Below, piece after piece: positions 4,482 to 61,062 of a stretch of 64,000 bases of DNA. The position numbers were made by a program, and so were the translations under genes. The first letter of the stretch is position 1. Every line of letters begins with the position of its first letter. The notes beneath the pieces were generated by a model that was not told the origin of the DNA, did no database searches, and was given only the letters and a program-made list of their open reading frames with translations. The DNA is from an uncultured Desulfosarcina sp. (lineage in GTDB: Bacteria > Desulfobacterota > Desulfobacteria > Desulfobacterales > Desulfosarcinaceae), in contig CAXXWQ010000002.1 in the NCBI GenBank assembly GCA_963674945.2, forward strand, positions 160,001 to 224,000. Direction: 5' to 3'.

Positions 4482-4635
4482 GACGGCTTCGTAAAAAGTC
4501 CGATATCTGCGTTACGCTTCATCCCTCGTCACTGCGACGTATCCAACCATACGCCTCATTCCTCGGGAATCGCAAGCCTTGATCTCGGGCTTTTTACGAA
4601 GCCGTCCGAAATCCGACTTTTTACGAGTTCATCAA
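4482..4635. repeat. MITE/ERIC-like palindromic element, family A, copy 1
   Basis: Inverted ends GACGGCTTCGTAAAAAGTCCG / CGGGCTTTTTACGAAGCCGTC plus an extra half-end GACTTTTTACGAGTTCATCAA; related copies at 18032, 26402, 33104 and 58637. Confidence 0.93.
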
Positions 4636-18031: not shown

Positions 18032-18183
18032 TACGGCTTCGTAAAAAGTCCGATATCGGCGTTACGCTTCGTCCCTCGTCACTGCGACGTATCCAACCAT
18101 ACGCCTCATTCCTCGGGACTCGCAATCCTTGATCTCGAACTTTTTACGAAGCCGTCCGAAATCAGACTTTTTAGGAGTTCTCA
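18032..18183. repeat. Family A element, copy 2
   Basis: Near-identical to 4482..4635; fills the gap between the hydratase stop and the ligase RBS. Confidence 0.93.
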
Positions 18184-18954: not shown

Positions 18955-19077
18955 TGAATTCTCCCTCGTGCAAACGGTGAAACATCGTTGCAGTTGATTC
19001 ACCCCGGGCACTGCCCGTGCGATACGAAGAGGTTCGAACCGGTCCGGTGAGACACTCAATCTGCAAAAACTTTTTTA

Positions 19078-19137
19078 ACATCGAACGTCCGGCGTCGAAT
19101 GCATAGATCGCTTCGCTCCATCGTTTGACAAATGGGA
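19078..19137. repeat. Heptamer-armed repeat, family E, copy 1 (partial)
   Basis: ACATCGA ACGTCCG GCGTCGA ATG...GATCGCTTCGCTCCATCG matches 55153..55215. Confidence 0.65.
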
Positions 19138-22584: not shown

Positions 22585-22706
22585 GAAGTCAGATACGAGA
22601 ATCCAGAATCAGGTATTCGCCTTCGGCTCGATCCATATTATCCAATCGATGGAGCGAAGCGACATCAGATTCATTCTGGCTCCTGAATATTGGCTTCTGA
22701 CTCCTG
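22585..22706. repeat. Heptamer-armed palindromic repeat, family D, copy 1
   Basis: AGAATCC-type heptamers, core ATTCGCCTTCGGCTCGATCCAT...CGATGGAGCGAAGCGACA, then inverted TTCTGGC/TCCTGAA/TTCTGAC heptamers; matches the reverse complement of 55243..55367. Confidence 0.8.
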
Positions 22707-22783
22707 TGGTTTCACAAAATCGCAGTACATCCTTCATTTAAGGAAAAGCGTAAGGCCAAGTTCTCCGAACACGGACTTTTGCC

Positions 22784-26401: not shown

Positions 26402-26555
26402 TGGTGAACTCATAAAAAGTGATATTTCAGACGGCTCCGTAAAAAGCCCGAGATCAAGGCTTGCGAGTGCCGAGGAATGAGGCGTATGGTTGGATACGTC
26501 GCAGTGACGAGGTGCGAAGCGTAACGCAGATATCGGGCTTTTTACGGAGCCGTCA
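26402..26555. repeat. Family A element, copy 3 (opposite orientation)
   Basis: GACGGCTCCGTAAAAAGCCCG...CGGGCTTTTTACGGAGCCGTCA; the end overlaps the rhomboid stop codon. Confidence 0.93.
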
Positions 26556-31390: not shown

Positions 31391-33106
31391 ATGGACAGTA
31401 ACCCAATACATGGGGGTTCGATGCCGTTTCCCTTATCCAGCAACCGCATTCGCGGCATTCGCCATCTTGGTGTGATTTCCCGCGTGCTCATCAAACATGG
31501 CATGGGGGAGATTGCCGATCGATTGAAGGGTCAGACCGGATCCCGGATCAAGTTCGGATTGCCCAATCCCGGCCGGGTCCGGCGAACCCTGGAAGAGTTG
31601 GGCCCCAGCTTCATCAAGCTCGGCCAGTTGATGAGCACGCGGGGCGATCTGTTTCCACCGGAATATATCGATGAATTGACCAAATTGCAGGACCAGGTCC
31701 CCCCAGTACCCTTCCGCAAAATTCGTCGGCTGGTCGAAACGGAACTGGAAAAGCCGCTGGACCGATTGTTCGACGAGATAGACGAAACGGCCCTTGCCGC
31801 CGCGTCGGTAGCCCAGGTACACAGGGCACGGCTCAAAACCGGTGAAGATGTGGCCGTGAAGGTGATTCGGCCGGGGATCGCGAAACAAATCCGAAAAGAT
31901 ATCCAGCTCATGTATTACTTCGCCACAAGGTTTGAGAAGGCCTTTGACATCGGGCGCATCGTGGGTGCGGTCAACCTTGTGAAAGAGTTCGAGCGAACCA
32001 TCTTCCGGGAACTGGACATGCTCATCGAAGCCGGCAACATCGAACGCTTTGCCCAAAACTTCAAGAATGTGGACGAAATCCACATTCCCTCCGTTTACTG
32101 GGATTTTACATCCAAGTCGGTGCTGGTCATGGAGCATATCGAAGGGATCAAGATGGATCGGGTGGAGGAGATTCGAAGCCAGGGTATCGATCCCGAATCG
32201 GTGGCCATGATCGGGCTTCGTTCTTTTTCCCGGCAGCTCATGGTCTCCGGAATTTTTCATGCCGATCCCCATCCGGGGAACACCATCGTCATGCGTGACG
32301 GACGTGTCGGCCTTGTTGATTTCGGCATCGTGGGATATCTGGACGAAGAGACCATGATGCAAATCGCACATCTTTTCCTGGGATTTTCCGAACACGACTA
32401 CGACATGGTAATGGAGGCATTCGAATTGGCCGGCCTGGTGGACCCGAAGTCCATGGACCTAAAAAGCTTTCGGGAAGACCTCAAGGACATGGCCGAACCT
32501 TTTTATGGCCGAAGTTTGAAAACCATTTCGGTCAAGGATGTATACGATCAGGTGATGCGCCTGGTGTTCAAATACCGAATCTGTCTGCCCCGGAACCTTT
32601 TGCTCCTCTTCAAGACCTTCATCCAGACAGAGGCCCTGGGAAAGATTCTCGGTTCCGATGCCAGCTTGCTGGAGGTGACACGACCCTACGCGGAGAAGCT
32701 TGTCAGACGGGGCTATGAAGCCCACAAGGTGCTGAAAAATATGGGGCGGGACGCGAAACTGTTCGGTGGCTACCTGCGCCAGATGCCCCACCTGGCCCAT
32801 GGTCTCTTTAAAAAAATGGCCACCGAAAATCCACGTGTGGAACTGGATCATACGGGCCTTACGTCCATGTCCAACAAATTCGAAAGCGGCATCAACCGTC
32901 TCACCATGGGGTTGGTGGTGGCCGCTTCGCTCATCGCCGCCGCACTGATTCTGAACTCCAAACGAGAGGTGTTCGTTATCGAGGTCGATTTCTGGGGATT
33001 GCAGACCCTTTCGATCACCGACCTTTTGGGCGTTGCCGGTTATGTCATCGCAACGATTCTGGGGGTGTGGTTAGTAATGTCCATCCTCCGCTCTAACAAA
33101 AGATAA
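31391..33106 (+). CDS. AarF/ABC1/UbiB kinase family protein
   Basis: LGPSFIKLGQ, LQDQVPP, AAASVAQVH, VAVKV, FHADPHPGN and DFG; two C-terminal TM helices. Confidence 0.95.
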   Translation: MDSNPIHGGSMPFPLSSNRIRGIRHLGVISRVLIKHGMGEIADRLKGQTGSRIKFGLPNPGRVRRTLEELGPSFIKLGQLMSTRGDLFPPEYIDELTKLQDQVPPVPFRKIRRLVETELEKPLDRLFDEIDETALAAASVAQVHRARLKTGEDVAVKVIRPGIAKQIRKDIQLMYYFATRFEKAFDIGRIVGAVNLVKEFERTIFRELDMLIEAGNIERFAQNFKNVDEIHIPSVYWDFTSKSVLVMEHIEGIKMDRVEEIRSQGIDPESVAMIGLRSFSRQLMVSGIFHADPHPGNTIVMRDGRVGLVDFGIVGYLDEETMMQIAHLFLGFSEHDYDMVMEAFELAGLVDPKSMDLKSFREDLKDMAEPFYGRSLKTISVKDVYDQVMRLVFKYRICLPRNLLLLFKTFIQTEALGKILGSDASLLEVTRPYAEKLVRRGYEAHKVLKNMGRDAKLFGGYLRQMPHLAHGLFKKMATENPRVELDHTGLTSMSNKFESGINRLTMGLVVAASLIAAALILNSKREVFVIEVDFWGLQTLSITDLLGVAGYVIATILGVWLVMSILRSNKR

Positions 33107-33250
33107 CGGTTTCGTAAGAGGCCCGATACCGGCGTTACGCGAATCCGACGTCACTGCGACGTACTCTTTGTACGTCTCGTTCCTTACGGATCCGCAATCC
33201 TTGCGGGCCTCTTACGAAGCCTCTGAAAATCCGTCCTTTGACGTCATCAA
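33104..33250. repeat. Family A element, copy 4 (divergent)
   Basis: TAACGGTTTCGTAAGAGGCCCG...CGGGCCTCTTACGAAGCC; core GGCGTTACGC...GTCACTGCGACGTA; begins on the UbiB-family stop TAA. Confidence 0.85.
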
Positions 33251-42273: not shown

Positions 42274-43842
42274 CTAGTGGGGTGCGCCGGCATGTAAGCG
42301 GTTTTTTTTAAATGGGATTCCCAGTTTTTTCATTTTCGTTCGTAACGTATTGGGATGCATCTCAAGCAGGGATGCGGCCCCGTTATTACCGCTGATTCGT
42401 CCGTTTGTATGTTTCAGCGCCAGAATTATATGCTTTTTCGCCATCTGATCAAAGGGTAGAACATCCGAAGAGCGCTGCCCGTTGTCGTGTTTCGTGTGAT
42501 CCCGCGGAGAAAGAAAATCATCCAGGGAGAGCAACCCGCTCTGGTATCGAATCAAAGCCCGCTCCACCACGTTTTCCAGTTCCCGAATATTGCCGGGCCA
42601 TCGGTAGTGGATCAACGGATCCAGGGTTCCCGGGGCCAGCTTTGGAATTTGCTTCAATTTTAGCTCTTTTGCCTTTTTTGCAATAAAATAATGGGCGAGT
42701 TCGGGGATATCGATTTTTCGCTGCCGCAGAGGGGGAATCATGATGGGAAGAACATTCAACCGATAATACAAATCCTCCCTGAATTCGTTTTTCTCCACCA
42801 TACTGGACAGATCCCTGTGAGTTGCGGCGATGACCCGAATGTCCACCGGGAGGGTTTGTGTCCCTCCCACCCGCTCGATCTCTTTGTTCTGAATCACTCT
42901 CAGCAGACGCACCTGGGCCTTCAACGATAATTCGCCGATCTCGTCCAGAAAGATGGTTCCCTCGTTGGCCCGTTCAAATCGTCCCCGCTTCCGCCCGGTG
43001 GCCCCGGTAAATGCACCTTTTTCATGTCCGAACAATTCGCTGTCGATCAGGCTTTCGGGAATGGCGCCGCAATTCACCTTGACCAAAGGCTTGTTCCGTC
43101 TCGGCGAAGAATAATGGATCGCATTGGCAATGACCTCTTTTCCCGTGCCGGTTTCACCCAACAACAGCACCGGGTTCTCCCTCGGGGCTGTTTGTGCGAC
43201 GATCTCCATCACATCCTTCAGCCCATAGTCTCTTCCGATCACTTCATTTGATGATTCCTGCAGTTCTAACCGAAGATTGCGGTTGTCTTCTGCCAGAATC
43301 TCTTGCAGCCTCATTATCTCCTGATATTGCAGGCAATTTGACATTACCATGGCAAAGGGTTCCTGCAAGGGTTCCAACAGGTCTGCATGGTTTTGAAAGT
43401 ATTGATCGATCCCGGCAGCAAACATGCTCAAGATCCCGATCCATTCACCATCGATCAGCAGCCGTAAATTCAGGCTCGATATTCCATTTTCGCCGAACAA
43501 ATCCGGTACGGATGACGCAAGGCCCTCCAGATTCGGCTTGTTTTGGTTGGTAAGCACAATATTGTTAATCAGCGTCGGTTCTTTCATGCTCCAGGATTTT
43601 GCAAACTCAATGGTTTTTTCCCGCAGAGGGCGGTGAACATTTTCGCTTACGGAATATTCTGCCGTGGTTTCGGCCATTTGCCTGAAGTATTTCATTTCTA
43701 TATCCAAAACGCCGATGGTGATTAGTCTCAGTGGTATGATATCGGCAAGATAGTCGAATAAACGGCGAAGAGCGATTGTAATGTCCAGGCTGCTGCAAAA
43801 CCGTTGGATCGCTTCAATATAAAACTTATCCTTAGAAGGCAT
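42274..43842 (-). CDS. Sigma54-dependent transcriptional activator (GAF-like sensor, AAA+, Fis HTH; FhlA-like)
   Basis: GETGTGKE, ELFGHEKGAFTGA, FLDEIGE, FREDLYYRLNV, WPGNIRELEN and HPNTLR HTH. Confidence 0.95.
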   Translation of the reverse strand: MPSKDKFYIEAIQRFCSSLDITIALRRLFDYLADIIPLRLITIGVLDIEMKYFRQMAETTAEYSVSENVHRPLREKTIEFAKSWSMKEPTLINNIVLTNQNKPNLEGLASSVPDLFGENGISSLNLRLLIDGEWIGILSMFAAGIDQYFQNHADLLEPLQEPFAMVMSNCLQYQEIMRLQEILAEDNRNLRLELQESSNEVIGRDYGLKDVMEIVAQTAPRENPVLLLGETGTGKEVIANAIHYSSPRRNKPLVKVNCGAIPESLIDSELFGHEKGAFTGATGRKRGRFERANEGTIFLDEIGELSLKAQVRLLRVIQNKEIERVGGTQTLPVDIRVIAATHRDLSSMVEKNEFREDLYYRLNVLPIMIPPLRQRKIDIPELAHYFIAKKAKELKLKQIPKLAPGTLDPLIHYRWPGNIRELENVVERALIRYQSGLLSLDDFLSPRDHTKHDNGQRSSDVLPFDQMAKKHIILALKHTNGRISGNNGAASLLEMHPNTLRTKMKKLGIPFKKNRLHAGAPH

Positions 43843-46001: not shown

Positions 46002-47341
46002 GATTCCGGAGACGCCATGAGAGACTGGATGTATTCCACGCTTACACCGATGGATTGGGCCGTTTTTTCCATGTCGTCGTTGTAAACAGACAACTTCCTT
46101 TGCACATATTCCTTTTCGAAAGCGTTTCTGGCTTTGTCCAGGTCCTCCATGGAGAAGAGTTCACTGCCCATCCGTTTCCGATTGGATAAATTGGACGGCA
46201 GGTCCCTTACGGTAATGGTTTCCCCATGGACCATGATCGCCAGTCGTTCGATGAGGTTTTTCAACTCCCGCACGTTTCCCGGCCAGGAGTATTTGGTTAG
46301 CACGTCCATGGCATCGGGAGCGATGGTTTTGCACTTTTCACGATTGCTGGCCGCGGCCTCTGCCAGGAAAATATCCGTTAATTCCGGAATATCTTCCAAG
46401 CGGTCCCGTAAGGGCGGAACGACAATGGGAACCACGTTGAGGCGGTAATACAAATCTTCCCTGAAGTTGCCGTTTTCGATTTCCGCTTCCAGATCCTTAT
46501 TGGTGGCCGCGATGACCCTGACGTCCGTGGTCAGGATGCGTCCCTGGCCCACCCGCTGGAATTTTTTTTCGTCCAGCACCCTCAGGATCTTGGCCTGGGT
46601 GGCCTTGTTCATGTCCCCGATTTCGTCCAGAAAAATGGTTCCGGTGTTGGCCAGTTCAAACTTGCCCCGTTTCTTCGAACTGGATCCGGTGACGGCGCCC
46701 TTTTCATGGCCGAACAGCTCACTTTCCATCAACGTTTCCGGAATGGCGGCACAGTTGACATCGATCATCGGGGATTCGGCGCGGGGACTCAATTGATGAA
46801 TGGTTCGGGCCACCAACTCCTTTCCCGTGCCATTCTCGCCTTTGATCAGCACCCAGGAATCGGTGGGGGCGACGTTGTCGATCTGTGCTTTGAGGGCCTG
46901 GATCGGTGCGCTGTTGCCACTGATGGAGTGTTTTTCGAGGGTTTTTTTTCGTAAGTATCGGTTTTCTTCCTCCAGACGTCGGAAGTTGAGGGCATTGTTG
47001 ATGGCGACGATCACCTTGTCAATATTAAGGGGTTTCTCGATGAGATCGTATGCCCCCAGCTTGGTCGCTTTGACGGCGGTCTCCACATTGCCGTGACCGG
47101 TGATGACGATGACCGGTAGTGCGGTGTTGACCTTTTTGATCTCCCGTAACGTCTCGATGCCGTCGATGCCGGGCATCCAGATATCCAGCATGACGAGATC
47201 CGGCGCCTCGGCATCGATGATCTTTAAAGCCTCATATCCGTTGTTTGTGGTGATAACCTCGAAACCTTCATCCGTGAGCAGACCGCTTAAGGACTGCAGA
47301 ATCGTGGGCTCATCGTCTACGATTAGAATGGTGGGGAACAT
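45998..47341 (-). CDS. ntrX: NtrX-like response regulator (REC-AAA+-HTH)
   Basis: ILIVDDE, LDIWMP, GENGTGKE and FREDLYYRLNV; follows the NtrY-like kinase; the GAFTGA loop reads GAVTGS. Confidence 0.85.
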   Translation of the reverse strand: MFPTILIVDDEPTILQSLSGLLTDEGFEVITTNNGYEALKIIDAEAPDLVMLDIWMPGIDGIETLREIKKVNTALPVIVITGHGNVETAVKATKLGAYDLIEKPLNIDKVIVAINNALNFRRLEEENRYLRKKTLEKHSISGNSAPIQALKAQIDNVAPTDSWVLIKGENGTGKELVARTIHQLSPRAESPMIDVNCAAIPETLMESELFGHEKGAVTGSSSKKRGKFELANTGTIFLDEIGDMNKATQAKILRVLDEKKFQRVGQGRILTTDVRVIAATNKDLEAEIENGNFREDLYYRLNVVPIVVPPLRDRLEDIPELTDIFLAEAAASNREKCKTIAPDAMDVLTKYSWPGNVRELKNLIERLAIMVHGETITVRDLPSNLSNRKRMGSELFSMEDLDKARNAFEKEYVQRKLSVYNDDMEKTAQSIGVSVEYIQSLMASPES

Positions 47342-51179: not shown

Positions 51180-51305
51180 TGAGCACGGCTTCCTGAATAT
51201 GGAGGTTATGCCGACAAGATGTCGGTGAATTCGATTGAATTTCCATTTTATTGGCTGACTTTCGGGCAATTTTAATCACCTATGAGCTGTTTGACAACTA
51301 TTAAT

Positions 51306-51450
51306 TAGTGCCCATCCAGAAATGGCCAATTTGCCCGATATCGGCGTTGCGCGAAAAATTTTATCCTCGGAATATCAACCATATGCCTCCGGTAAAATTT
51401 TTCACGCGCCTTGATCTCGACCAAATTTGCCTATTTCTGGACAGACACTA
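51306..51450. repeat. TA-flanked MITE-like palindromic element, family C, copy 1
   Basis: TAGTGCCCATCCAGAAAT...ATTTCTGGACAGACACTA inverted ends; matches the reverse complement of 63430..63613; interior shares the family A core. Confidence 0.9.
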
Positions 51451-51571
51451 GTTATTTTCGATGAGGGGAAAGCATCCGGTGCAGGAAAAACATTGTTCTT
51501 CACCGGCAGAGTTGGTATAAGTAAATACTTCTCTTTTTGCATACGAAGTTATTTATTATCTTCAGGGGAGA

Positions 51572-53762: not shown

Positions 53763-55184
53763 TTGCCCACTTCATCGAAACCGGTTCAATCCTTTGACGT
53801 GGTTATCGTCGGCGGCGGTCCCGCGGGACTTTTTTCCGCCTATTACCTCGGTGCGCATTCGAAGCTCAAGGTGTTGCTCGTGGAGCAGGGAAAAGAACCG
53901 CGCAAGCGGGTCTGTCCGATTGCGGACCGGCAGTATTGCACGCAGTGCAACCCCTGCAACATCCTGTGCGGGGTCGGCGGTGCCGGACTCTTCTCCGATG
54001 GAAAGCTCAACTTCATCCCGAAGCTGGGCAAGACCGATCTCACCCAGTTCCTGTCCCCGGCGGATGCGGCAAGCCTGATCGACGAGACCGAGGCGATTTT
54101 CAATCGATTCAAAATGGACGGTCCGGTCTACCCGACGGATATGGCGGCGGCGAAAATCATTCGCAAGAATGCCAAACGCTTCGGAATCGATTTGTTGCTC
54201 ATCAGGCAAAAGCATCTGGGTAGCGATCGGTTGCCCCAATATATCACCGCCATGACCGAACATATCCGGTCCAGTGGCGTCACCTTGCATACGGGTGAAA
54301 AAGCGGAGGATGTGATTGTCCAAGAGGGGAGGGTCGTCGGCGTTACCACCGATCGCGGCGTTTACCACTGTGATCATGTGATCCTGGCACCGGGACGCAT
54401 CGGTGCGGATTGGGTGTCGCGGCTGGCCCAGCGTCACGGTATCGGCCTCACCCAGCGGGGAATCGAGGTGGGGGTGCGGGTGGAAGTGCACAACGACATC
54501 ATGCAGGATCTTTGCGACGTGATCTACGACCCGACCTTCTTCGTCCAGACCGGCAAATACGATGACCAGACCCGCACCTTTTGCACCAACCAGGGCGGAT
54601 TCGTCTCCCTGGAGAGCTATGCCGATTTTGTGTGTGTAAACGGACACGCCTACCTTGACCGCAAGTCGGCAAACACCAACTTCGCCTTTCTTTCCAAGGT
54701 GGTGCTCACCGAACCCGTCACCGATAACCAGGCCTATGGCGAGGCCATCGGCCGACTCTCCACCCTCATCGGCGGCGGAAAGCCAATTTTGCAGCGTTTC
54801 GGAGATCTGAAACGGGGCCGCCGAAGCACCTGGAACCGGATTCGCAAGGGCTACATGGAGCCGACGCTGACCAACGTCGTATGCGGGGATATCGCCATGG
54901 CGCTTCCCGAGCGGATTCTTACAAACATCATCGATGGATTGGAGCAGCTGAACCGGGTGGTACCCGGTGTTTCCAACGACGAAACGCTGCTTTACGCACC
55001 GGAGATCAAGTTCTTCGCCACACAGGTCAAGACATCCCGTCTTTTGGAGACGGACGTTCGGGGTATGTATGTGGCCGGCGACGGGCCGGGCGTCGCCGGA
55101 AATATCGTCTCCGCCGCCGCCACCGGCTTGATACCGGCAAAGGCGATTTTGCACATTGAACATCGAACGTCCAACGCCGAATGA
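53763..55184 (+). CDS. FAD-dependent oxidoreductase with an N-terminal Cys cluster
   Basis: DVVIVGGGPAG, CP...CTQCNPCNILCGVGGAGLFSDGK, GVRVE, RTFC, VNGH, NTNFA and AGDGPG. TTG at 53763 with GGAG RBS; the track ORF starts at 53694. Confidence 0.9.
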   Translation: MPTSSKPVQSFDVVIVGGGPAGLFSAYYLGAHSKLKVLLVEQGKEPRKRVCPIADRQYCTQCNPCNILCGVGGAGLFSDGKLNFIPKLGKTDLTQFLSPADAASLIDETEAIFNRFKMDGPVYPTDMAAAKIIRKNAKRFGIDLLLIRQKHLGSDRLPQYITAMTEHIRSSGVTLHTGEKAEDVIVQEGRVVGVTTDRGVYHCDHVILAPGRIGADWVSRLAQRHGIGLTQRGIEVGVRVEVHNDIMQDLCDVIYDPTFFVQTGKYDDQTRTFCTNQGGFVSLESYADFVCVNGHAYLDRKSANTNFAFLSKVVLTEPVTDNQAYGEAIGRLSTLIGGGKPILQRFGDLKRGRRSTWNRIRKGYMEPTLTNVVCGDIAMALPERILTNIIDGLEQLNRVVPGVSNDETLLYAPEIKFFATQVKTSRLLETDVRGMYVAGDGPGVAGNIVSAAATGLIPAKAILHIEHRTSNAE

Positions 55185-55215
55185 TGCGATCGCTTCGCTC
55201 CACCATTGAAAATGA
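55153..55215. repeat. Family E repeat, copy 2, overlapping the oxidoreductase 3' end
   Basis: ACATTGA ACATCGA ACGTCCA ACGCCGA ATGATGCGATCGCTTCGCTCCA. Confidence 0.7.
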
Positions 55216-55242
55216 AATCCCAATAAACAAATTCCAAAACTG

Positions 55243-55367
55243 CAGAAGTCAGAATCCAGAAGTCAGAATTTAGAATGGCGATGTTGTCACTGCGCTCCAT
55301 CGTTTTTAAATGGATGAGCTATAGGCGAATCCGATTTCTGGATTCTGGCTCCTGACTCCTGAATACT
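55243..55367. repeat. Family D repeat, copy 2
   Basis: AGAAGTC AGAATCC AGAAGTC AGAATTT arm, core GCGCTCCATCG...ATGGATGAGCTATAGGCGAAT, inverted arm TTCTGGA TTCTGGC TCCTGAC TCCTGAA. Confidence 0.8.
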
Positions 55368-58636: not shown

Positions 58637-58791
58637 TGATGATCTCGTGAAAAGTCAGGTTTTCGGACGGTTTCGTAAAAAGTTCGAGATCAAGGATTGC
58701 GAGCCCCGAGGAACGAGGCGTATGGTTGGATACGTCGCAATGACGAGGGGCGAAGCGTAACGAAGATATCGGACTTTTTACGAATCCGTCA
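58637..58791. repeat. Family A element, copy 5
   Basis: Extra half-end TGATGATCTCGTGAAAAGTC, then GACGGTTTCGTAAAAAG...CTTTTTACGAATCCGTCA; overlaps the AAA+ gene stop. Confidence 0.93.
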
Positions 58792-59756: not shown

Positions 59757-60926
59757 ATGAATGAGAAACTCAACAACGAGATGATCCACCAGCTGGATCA
59801 CGACGGAAAACAGATCACCCTGGTGGGGACGGCCCACGTATCCAAAGAGAGTGTGGACCTTGTCAAGACAGTCATCGACGAGGTAAAACCGGATACGGTC
59901 TGCGTCGAACTTTGTGAGAGCCGTGCCCAGGCCATTAACCAGAAGGACCGTTGGCGGGAGATGGACATCATCAAGGTGATCAAGGAGAAGAAGGCCTTTC
60001 TCCTTCTATCCAACCTGATGCTGGCATCCTTTCAAAAGCGAATCGCCGACAAGCTGGAGGTCTCTCCCGGTCAGGAGATGATCCAGGCCATGGAGTCGGC
60101 AAATGCCGTTGGCGCCAAGGTGCATATGGCGGACCGGGACATCCGGACCACATTATCCCGGACGTGGCGGAGCATGGGGCTGTGGGGCAAGACCAAACTG
60201 ATCTTCCAACTGCTTCTCTCTATGGGTGCCGTGGACGAGATCAGCGAGGAGGACGTGGAAAAGATGAAGCAGCAGGACATGCTGGCTTCGATCCTGGACG
60301 AGGTGGGAAAGTCCATGCCCCGAGTTCGTGAAACCCTCATCGACGAACGGGACCAATACCTGACCGAGCGGGTTCGCACCGCTCCCGGGCAGCGAATCGT
60401 CGCCGTGGTCGGCGCCGGCCACGTGCCGGGCATGTTGCGTAACTGGGAGCGTCCCATCGATCTTGCGCCCTTGATGGAATTGCCGCCAAAGGGCCCCTTT
60501 TCCAAGATTTTTAAATGGCTTCTGCCCTTTGCGATCTGTACGATGATCATTTATGGGTTTTTCCGCGGGGGAGCGGCCGCGGGTTCTGAAATGGTTACCT
60601 GGTGGGTCTTGGCAAACGGCGTCCTGGCCGGACTGGGTGCCCTGTTGGCCCTGGGTCACCCGTTTACCATCCTGTCATCCATACTGGCGGCACCACTGAC
60701 CTCTCTCAACCCCATGATTGCCGCGGGGTGGGTCTCGGGTCTGGTGGAGGCCTTTTCCCGTAAGCCCAGAGTCATGGATTTCGAAAATCTTTCCAGTGAC
60801 ATCGTTTCGGTCAAAGGGTTCTGGCGAAACAAAGTAACCCGGGTTCTGTTGGTGGTTGTCTTTACCAATCTTGGAAGTTCCGTCGGGACTTTTGTCGCCA
60901 TACCCATGATGATGAAGTTCCTATAG
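59757..60926 (+). CDS. TraB/GumN (pheromone-shutdown TraB-like) family protein
   Basis: LVGTAHVS, PDTVCVELC, PGQEM, ADRDI, LIDERD and AVVGAGHVPG; C-terminal TM helices. Confidence 0.92.
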   Translation: MNEKLNNEMIHQLDHDGKQITLVGTAHVSKESVDLVKTVIDEVKPDTVCVELCESRAQAINQKDRWREMDIIKVIKEKKAFLLLSNLMLASFQKRIADKLEVSPGQEMIQAMESANAVGAKVHMADRDIRTTLSRTWRSMGLWGKTKLIFQLLLSMGAVDEISEEDVEKMKQQDMLASILDEVGKSMPRVRETLIDERDQYLTERVRTAPGQRIVAVVGAGHVPGMLRNWERPIDLAPLMELPPKGPFSKIFKWLLPFAICTMIIYGFFRGGAAAGSEMVTWWVLANGVLAGLGALLALGHPFTILSSILAAPLTSLNPMIAAGWVSGLVEAFSRKPRVMDFENLSSDIVSVKGFWRNKVTRVLLVVVFTNLGSSVGTFVAIPMMMKFL

Positions 60927-61062
60927 GGGCCACGACAAAGGTTTTGGACTGTGTTATCGGTCGTCGCGGTATACATGCATACAGCTTCCTCCCTCTGGCC
61001 TTGCCAAAACAATTGTCGTGGCCCCTATGCCCGGATTTGAAATTTCAAATCCGAAATTATCT

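Follow-up and report, generated by a model that had tools for sequence, protein, structure and literature searches.

How can one hairpin core sit inside repeats whose ends differ? The question is raised by a 64,000-nucleotide stretch of an uncultured Desulfosarcina genome (contig CAXXWQ010000002.1, positions 160,001 to 224,000; hereafter the window), in which two repeat families, A and C, share three motifs. A sequence-only reading had proposed that one structure-selected module is exchanged between unrelated mobile termini. Our analysis shows that families A and C are miniature transposable elements with inverted repeats (MITEs) carrying an unexplained conserved module that unites the ERIC and Correia elements.

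The sequences first quoted for both families are present at the window positions given for them. The element in question, C1, is a family C MITE of 141 bp on the minus strand at 51308..51448, and both of its ends resemble the right end of an ISNCY insertion sequence (IS). It had been placed at 51306..51450; an element does lie there, but C1 proper runs between a left 6-bp target duplication, TAATTA (51302..51307), and a right one, TAGTTA (51449..51454), which are unstranded and match at 5/6 positions. The core of C1, read on the minus strand, comprises the 5' side of a basal loop, CAAGGC (51408..51413), an apical module made of CC-GGA-GG, a short stem, a variable loop and GA-GG-A (51364..51392), and the 3' side of the basal loop, AACGC (51344..51348).

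Fold and covariation of the core

C1 folds as a single long hairpin, best on the minus strand, which reads AAGGC...AACGC (-73.6 kcal/mol as RNA versus -54.6 kcal/mol for the other strand). The z-scores of the fold are -10.3 as RNA and -8.8 as DNA. Three fixed motifs separated by arms that are replaced and still pair were found as originally described. From 59 diverse cores, 47 passed the length and pattern filters. The inner arms of these 47 paired at -13.8 kcal/mol with their own partners and at -6.3 kcal/mol with swapped arms, and the own arm was the best of all partners in 30/47 cores, with an arm identity of 34%.

In a 58-row alignment, the covariation score was 0.483, versus 0.148 for shuffled and at most 0.156 for slid alignments; these controls ignore kinship among the sequences, and the pattern used in the search had already fixed the apex columns. 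The third motif (AAC), which lay outside that pattern, was located 12-24 nt downstream in 106 of the 119 stretches listed (4.4 after shuffling). The stems covary across phyla, and the loop motifs remain constant. These data speak for selection on the fold of the core. The proposal of a structure-selected module with sequence-fixed internal loops is supported by this covariation and by loops that vary less than the stems, and nothing in Rfam matched: the window gave 0 matches at the gathering score, and none fell on the core in eight non-E. coli loci at E-values (E) up to 1.

The kink-turn, a bulge followed by invariant tandem G-A pairs, was considered and rejected because the would-be first G of these pairs is C in 30/47 diverse cores. 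The basal loop may resemble loop-E-like or signal recognition particle helix-8 motifs.

Two spacing classes

From the basal loop to the apical module, the distance is 10-11 nt in Correia elements and in family F of this genome, and 19-23 nt in A, C, ERIC and a third core interior, family E. We then considered a blind metagenome scan, in which the 5' gap was set to 5-17 nt and the 3' distance was left free; it returned at least 120 stretches, of which 108 were distinct. Of these 108 listed stretches, 62 had a 3' distance of 9-12 nt (55 of them exactly 10), 35 had 19-22 nt and 0 had 13-18 nt, while 11 had no 3' motif. In 25 matches the two sides differed, with 11 nt against about 20 nt, and 24 of these were long forms with a second CAAGGC in the arm. 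The 50 short cores of the scan fall into 10 flank clusters. Of 313 family-level matches, 150 were listed, and inspection of these by eye found no 30-nt class. The helical repeat is about 10.5 for B-DNA and 11 for A-RNA. The two classes correspond to one and two helical turns, and the step between them is one turn, nearer B-DNA than A-RNA, although bulges blur the comparison.

Transposon ends and partner elements

Families A and C have the traits of bacterial MITEs: a length of 141-153 bp, no transposase, terminal inverted repeats and many copies. The window contains five family A copies, namely A1 with IS1182-like ends (4482..4633, minus strand, 152 bp), A2 (18032..18183, minus strand) with an exact 6-bp duplication, A3 (26403..26554, plus strand) with a 7-bp duplication, A4 (33105..33248, minus strand), which is diverged, and A5 (58638..58790, plus strand) with an exact 6-bp duplication. 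A second family C element, C2 (63432..63611, plus strand, 180 bp), harbors an additional hairpin within the core.

The GACGG repeat that had been taken as the end of family A is present; however, it is the inner end, and the mobile unit begins about 27 nt outward at GATGAACTCGTAAAAAG. Measured from this outer end, 18/59 A elements have an exact 6-bp duplication (shuffled mean 0.7), and measured from the inner GACGG end the result is 0/48. In family A, whose ends are asymmetric, a left end is combined with an inverted pair that encloses the core. For C elements, the 6-bp duplication is exact in 5/55 and present in 13/55 with one mismatch allowed (0.3 and 2.9 after shuffling).

A transposase gene flanked by the same termini, the check that had been suggested, was found for each family. 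For C, a domain search located a single-copy intact ISNCY element in this genome (1685 bp, G000:C4:1594875-1596559, where G000 denotes this genome) with an exact 6-bp duplication and a 454-aa transposase that passes the curated NCBIfam cut-off for ISNCY (NF033593; 425 versus 325 bits). A truncated second ISNCY is also present, and the right ends of both match the C ends. Over 20 nt, both C ends agree with the ISNCY right ends at 13.1-15.7 positions and with the left end at 10. MITEs are usually regarded as internally deleted IS; because both ends of C resemble the right end of the IS, C is not a plain internal deletion. In relatives, 9/17 ISNCY rows (one locus appears twice in the list) have a 6-bp duplication that is exact and follows the C-type consensus.

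For A, relatives G015, G031 and G033 harbor a 1.9-kb element with A-type ends and a 577-aa IS1182-like transposase, and its left end in G033 is the outer end of family A. The 6-bp duplication is exact in 8/9 copies. The best family of this transposase is NF033551 (E 1e-49), with 170 bits versus a curated IS1182 cut-off of 270. At the flanks, the consensus T....A agrees with ISNCY and A....T with the IS1182-like element, and the C and A duplications carry the consensus of their respective partners. Some IS1182-like copies share their target with an adjoining A element. At G033 loci L054, L065, L051 and L067, the IS1182-like element directly adjoins an A element, and the 6-bp target occurs threefold in L054 and L065.

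Unlike C and A, the two partners encode transposases and lack the core. No covariance-model match (the model is described below) lay inside a partner IS in 18 loci; E 0.01 was passed by two adjacent A elements only. The core is therefore cargo separate from the autonomous IS. The two transposases gave no significant alignment with each other (best E 0.067), and the ISNCY transposase had no viral relative. As for the termini of A and C being unrelated, the dissimilar transposases agree with that view, but a short CGAGATC/GATATCGG segment beside the core is common to both families.

The suggestion of a new mobilisation system was not supported, as both the termini and the target duplications indicate that ordinary DDE transposases act in trans. 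From these sequence features, A and C are likely moved by the IS1182-like and ISNCY transposases, respectively. The DDE-type duplications of both families also argue against the REP/REPIN system, which depends on an HUH transposase with a linked RAYT gene.

Genome self-comparison revealed no multi-copy IS with A or C ends among the matches listed. A 2-kb repeat starting at an A-type end was considered as a candidate IS and rejected, since its translations read as a duplicated electron-transfer-flavoprotein-like gene pair; this near-identical duplication lies at G000:C3:1499043-1501060 and C4:3256403-3258443. The genome is rich in recent multi-copy IS, with about 26-28 copies of 1.67-kb and 2.47-kb elements, plus others.

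Families and chimeras in the genome

A loose three-motif core pattern matched 91 places in the 7.08-Mb genome, compared with 2 after the genome was reversed. Profile searches retrieved 264 loci (156 A, 90 C and 18 E), of which 227 reach at least 40 bits, including 143 A and 69 C. Seven copies of the E interior lie within C-type ends and seven within other ends; in related genomes, the inner arms of nearly every E copy have a sequence of their own at constant length. This interior is found at G000:C2:138742 and about 14 further loci.

A 55-bp A/C chimera at G000:C2:345072 has a C end joined to an A end inside the shared segment and is direct evidence of exchange between the two families. Together with the two dissimilar partner transposases, it supports the earlier view of a module that rides in different termini and is exchanged between them. 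A second chimeric mini-element of 66 bp (G000:C1:79946) has one C-type and one A-type end. Longer A-ended elements (228-264 bp) with a portion of the core fused to a different interior occur at G000:C4:2240120, C4:3190487, C3:2557834 and C3:2613321, and an additional family pairs A-type ends with that other interior. Small additional hairpins beside the apical module were observed in C2 (63432-63611), L220, L230, L241 and L191, at positions resembling the 50-nt insert of long Correia elements.

Family F carries the same core, one helical turn shorter. Its window copy (60923..61028, minus strand, 106 bp) belongs to the short class and had escaped the sequence-only reading. About 13 copies were found in the genome, TA-ended, with the short core form and arms diverged by compensatory changes. 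In relatives, F is an active TA-ended family, with 31 exact core matches in G017. Ten copies here compared with the active family are 95% identical in the core and 65% in the arms, and the arms are 81% self-complementary; the copies were collected via the core, which favours this result. The 26/27-nt, copy-specific arms were considered as target copies, a candidate rejected because they derive from one shared end of the active family in relatives. For the window copy, orthologous empty sites were too diverged for alignment, and no autonomous partner for F was found among 17 IS630-type loci.

Distribution across bacteria and relation to ERIC and Correia

A genome-collection scan using the 5' motif plus apex returned at least 120 stretches, 80 of them with titles. 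Among the stretches listed, the core occurs in Desulfobacterales and kin, Nitrospirota, Acidobacteriota, Rokubacteria and Pseudomonadota, and additionally in single Firmicutes, Myxococcota, Actinomycetota and archaeal bins, which may be mis-binned. At least six end types carry the core. A phylum-wide pattern was too strict, missed even this genome (1/301) and was uninformative. The first viral scan gave three real cores among 80 loci, the remainder being mostly chance.

A covariance model was built from 57 scan matches plus C1, without family A, E. coli ERIC or Correia. The model recovered 5/5 window A copies, four at E 1e-6 to 3e-8 and A4 at 0.03, and also detected the F element at 60923-61028. 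We then submitted 49.8 kb of E. coli K-12, a region picked for its ERIC copies, to the model, whose E-values are rough. The top two of 14 matches were intergenic, at rpsB-tsf and before lpd, with ERIC scores of 23.6 bits (E 1.3e-4) and 16.2 bits (E 0.021). The first match translates to the RU-1 peptide end given in the available portion of PMC2759123. For Correia, 6/6 short-form loci scored 21-28.5 bits, and nine long-form loci scored below 10 bits inside the element. The likeness to ERIC and Correia, mentioned in the sequence-only reading, thus holds under the model for E. coli ERIC and short Correia.

ERIC, also named IRU or RU-1, is a 127-bp MITE of enterobacteria with the same core plan and long spacing class as A and C. 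It has TA ends according to the portion of PMC2229807 that was available, whereas A and C have other ends, 6-bp duplications and lengths of 141-153 bp. The available parts of the ERIC literature make no mention of a core shared with other families. Correia elements (CREE or NEMIS; 104-108 and 153-157 bp), described as Neisseria-only, have the same motifs with short spacing, like family F, and their long form carries a 50-nt insert. Their 26-bp repeat ends differ from those of A and C; the tested loci agree with the ends printed in the accessible pages of PMC2649163. Families A and C are core relatives of ERIC and Correia and members of neither.

In E. coli K-12, the ERIC at rpsB-tsf (L310:313-495) coincides in part with the Rfam families CssrA (136 bits) and, as a weak match, Vibrio V_AS5. 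These small-RNA families may be ERIC-derived.

Strand asymmetry and gene context

The strand carrying AAGG folds better in 31/32 C and 52/54 A elements, and its advantage is seen under RNA and DNA parameters. Between same-direction genes, this strand lies antisense in 96 cases and sense in 46 (A 54:35, C 32:11, E 10:0), orientation counts that rest on crude open reading frame calls, and the antisense bias remains after allowing for GC skew. Family F shows 18 antisense versus 7 sense. Outside same-direction gene pairs, the replication-strand bias is weak (35 versus 25). Among one-sided changes in the terminal stems, the ratio of G-T to A-C on the AAGG strand is 87:67 in A, 22:3 in outer C, and 14:6 and 31:18 in F. 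One strand of the core matters.

Other features around C1

A promoter and terminator scan around C1 gave chance-level results only, and C1 and A3 had no match in plasmids. RNA runs, which consist of contigs, contained at most 6% of the sequence words. The repeat finder also listed other two-copy repeats in the window: 42719-43085 with 46401-46767, 19074-19125 with 55156-55207, and 22644-22712 with 55237-55305.

Interpretation of the core

We favour, with a probability of about 0.5, a host factor that recognises the two motifs, both on one face of the folded strand, to the benefit of the carriers. Under this explanation, A and C are non-autonomous transposons with IS1182-like and ISNCY-type ends, likely mobilised in trans by those transposases, and the core would offer a conserved host protein a place to dock once one particular strand folds. 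The protein would read two sites that lie on the same helix face, the apical module and the purine-rich basal loop, and this would impose a spacing of 10 or 20 nt. Any carrier with IS ends would gain in spread or survival through docking, and the core probably moves to a new shell either by recombination within the flanking segment that A and C share or when an IS end is duplicated by fold-back. Whether the working form is RNA or single-stranded DNA is an about even choice, with a slight lean to RNA because orientation tracks transcription.

Several results weigh against this explanation. Core conservation is partly built in, since copies were found by core patterns, and compensatory changes could arise by arm-to-arm gene conversion without selection. 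Coupled non-Watson-Crick change is clear in C only (13/14 versus 3/18, perhaps one event) and absent in A, and the inner stem shows no excess of G-T over A-C (8:8). The orientation bias in other genomes is weak (20 versus 16), and both E. coli K-12 core matches lie sense. No family is enriched among 376 neighbour genes in this genome, none recurs among 64/122 neighbour proteins in other genomes, and the neighbour genes identified no candidate binding protein. Finally, the A-type (IS1182-like) transposase was not found in this genome.

The orientation data also bear on an unlikely alternative, in which the core is mainly a host-useful cis-acting RNA for transcript processing or stability, scattered by MITEs and retained by the host where useful. 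Old copies with decayed ends retain the hairpin and core, some F copies occupy shared loci in related species, and two Rfam small-RNA families overlap E. coli ERIC. The available portions of PMC2229807 and PMC2649163 describe RNase E/RNase III effects on ERIC and Correia transcripts, orientation-dependent for ERIC; however, the cleavages reported there fall in the terminal repeats rather than the core. Moreover, mRNA here tends not to contain the best-folding strand, the neighbour genes are random, and the core is constant in young, spreading families too.

The architecture of the ends suggests another explanation, somewhat more doubtful still, in which the core is a selfish MITE-maker: inserted into or next to an IS end, it would promote copying by fold-back and so yield a palindromic carrier with two usable ends. 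It would account for the two right-type IS ends of C in place of left plus right, for the left end plus inverted pair of A, and for the many shell types; the absence of the core from autonomous IS likewise indicates that the carriers are not simple internal deletions. However, neither a dedicated enzyme nor a free core flanked by a target duplication of its own was found, and the copy-specific F arms, the first hint of target copying, proved homologous to a shared family end. A functionless relic, with ends swapped by recombination and stems and motifs kept alike by gene conversion, is improbable: recombination does occur, as the A/C chimera shows, and both-sided changes are mostly Watson-Crick (77/87 in A), as conversion predicts, but arm-to-arm conversion would erase the unpaired loop motifs, and a relic leaves unexplained the fixed motifs around 34%-identical stems across phyla, the two discrete spacings and the strand bias.

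Significance

Work on ERIC and Correia, which dates back to 1986-1991, has treated them as distinct elements, each bound to its own lineage. In the literature searched, as far as its available portions extend (PMC3184786, PMC2229807, PMC10969869, PMC2759123, PMC2527527, PMC2649163, PMC2267715 and PMC11602168 included), no paper describes a core common to ERIC, Correia and A/C; ISfinder, subscription papers and supplements lay outside this scope and could bear on novelty. The accessible text of PMC2649163 still reports the Correia mobiliser as unknown, and that of PMC11602168, a MITE census, has no bacterial cluster crossing phyla.

Tentatively, ERIC, Correia and many unnamed repeats across phyla may form one superfamily defined by a phase-locked two-loop hairpin, on which a conserved host protein would dock, turning almost any IS end into a successful MITE. 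If this were true, the core would enhance mobile DNA independently of the transposase, hopping from one transposon family to another. The absence of the core from the partner IS, its sharing among transposase families and phyla, and its restriction to two spacings point to an unrecognised molecular interaction.
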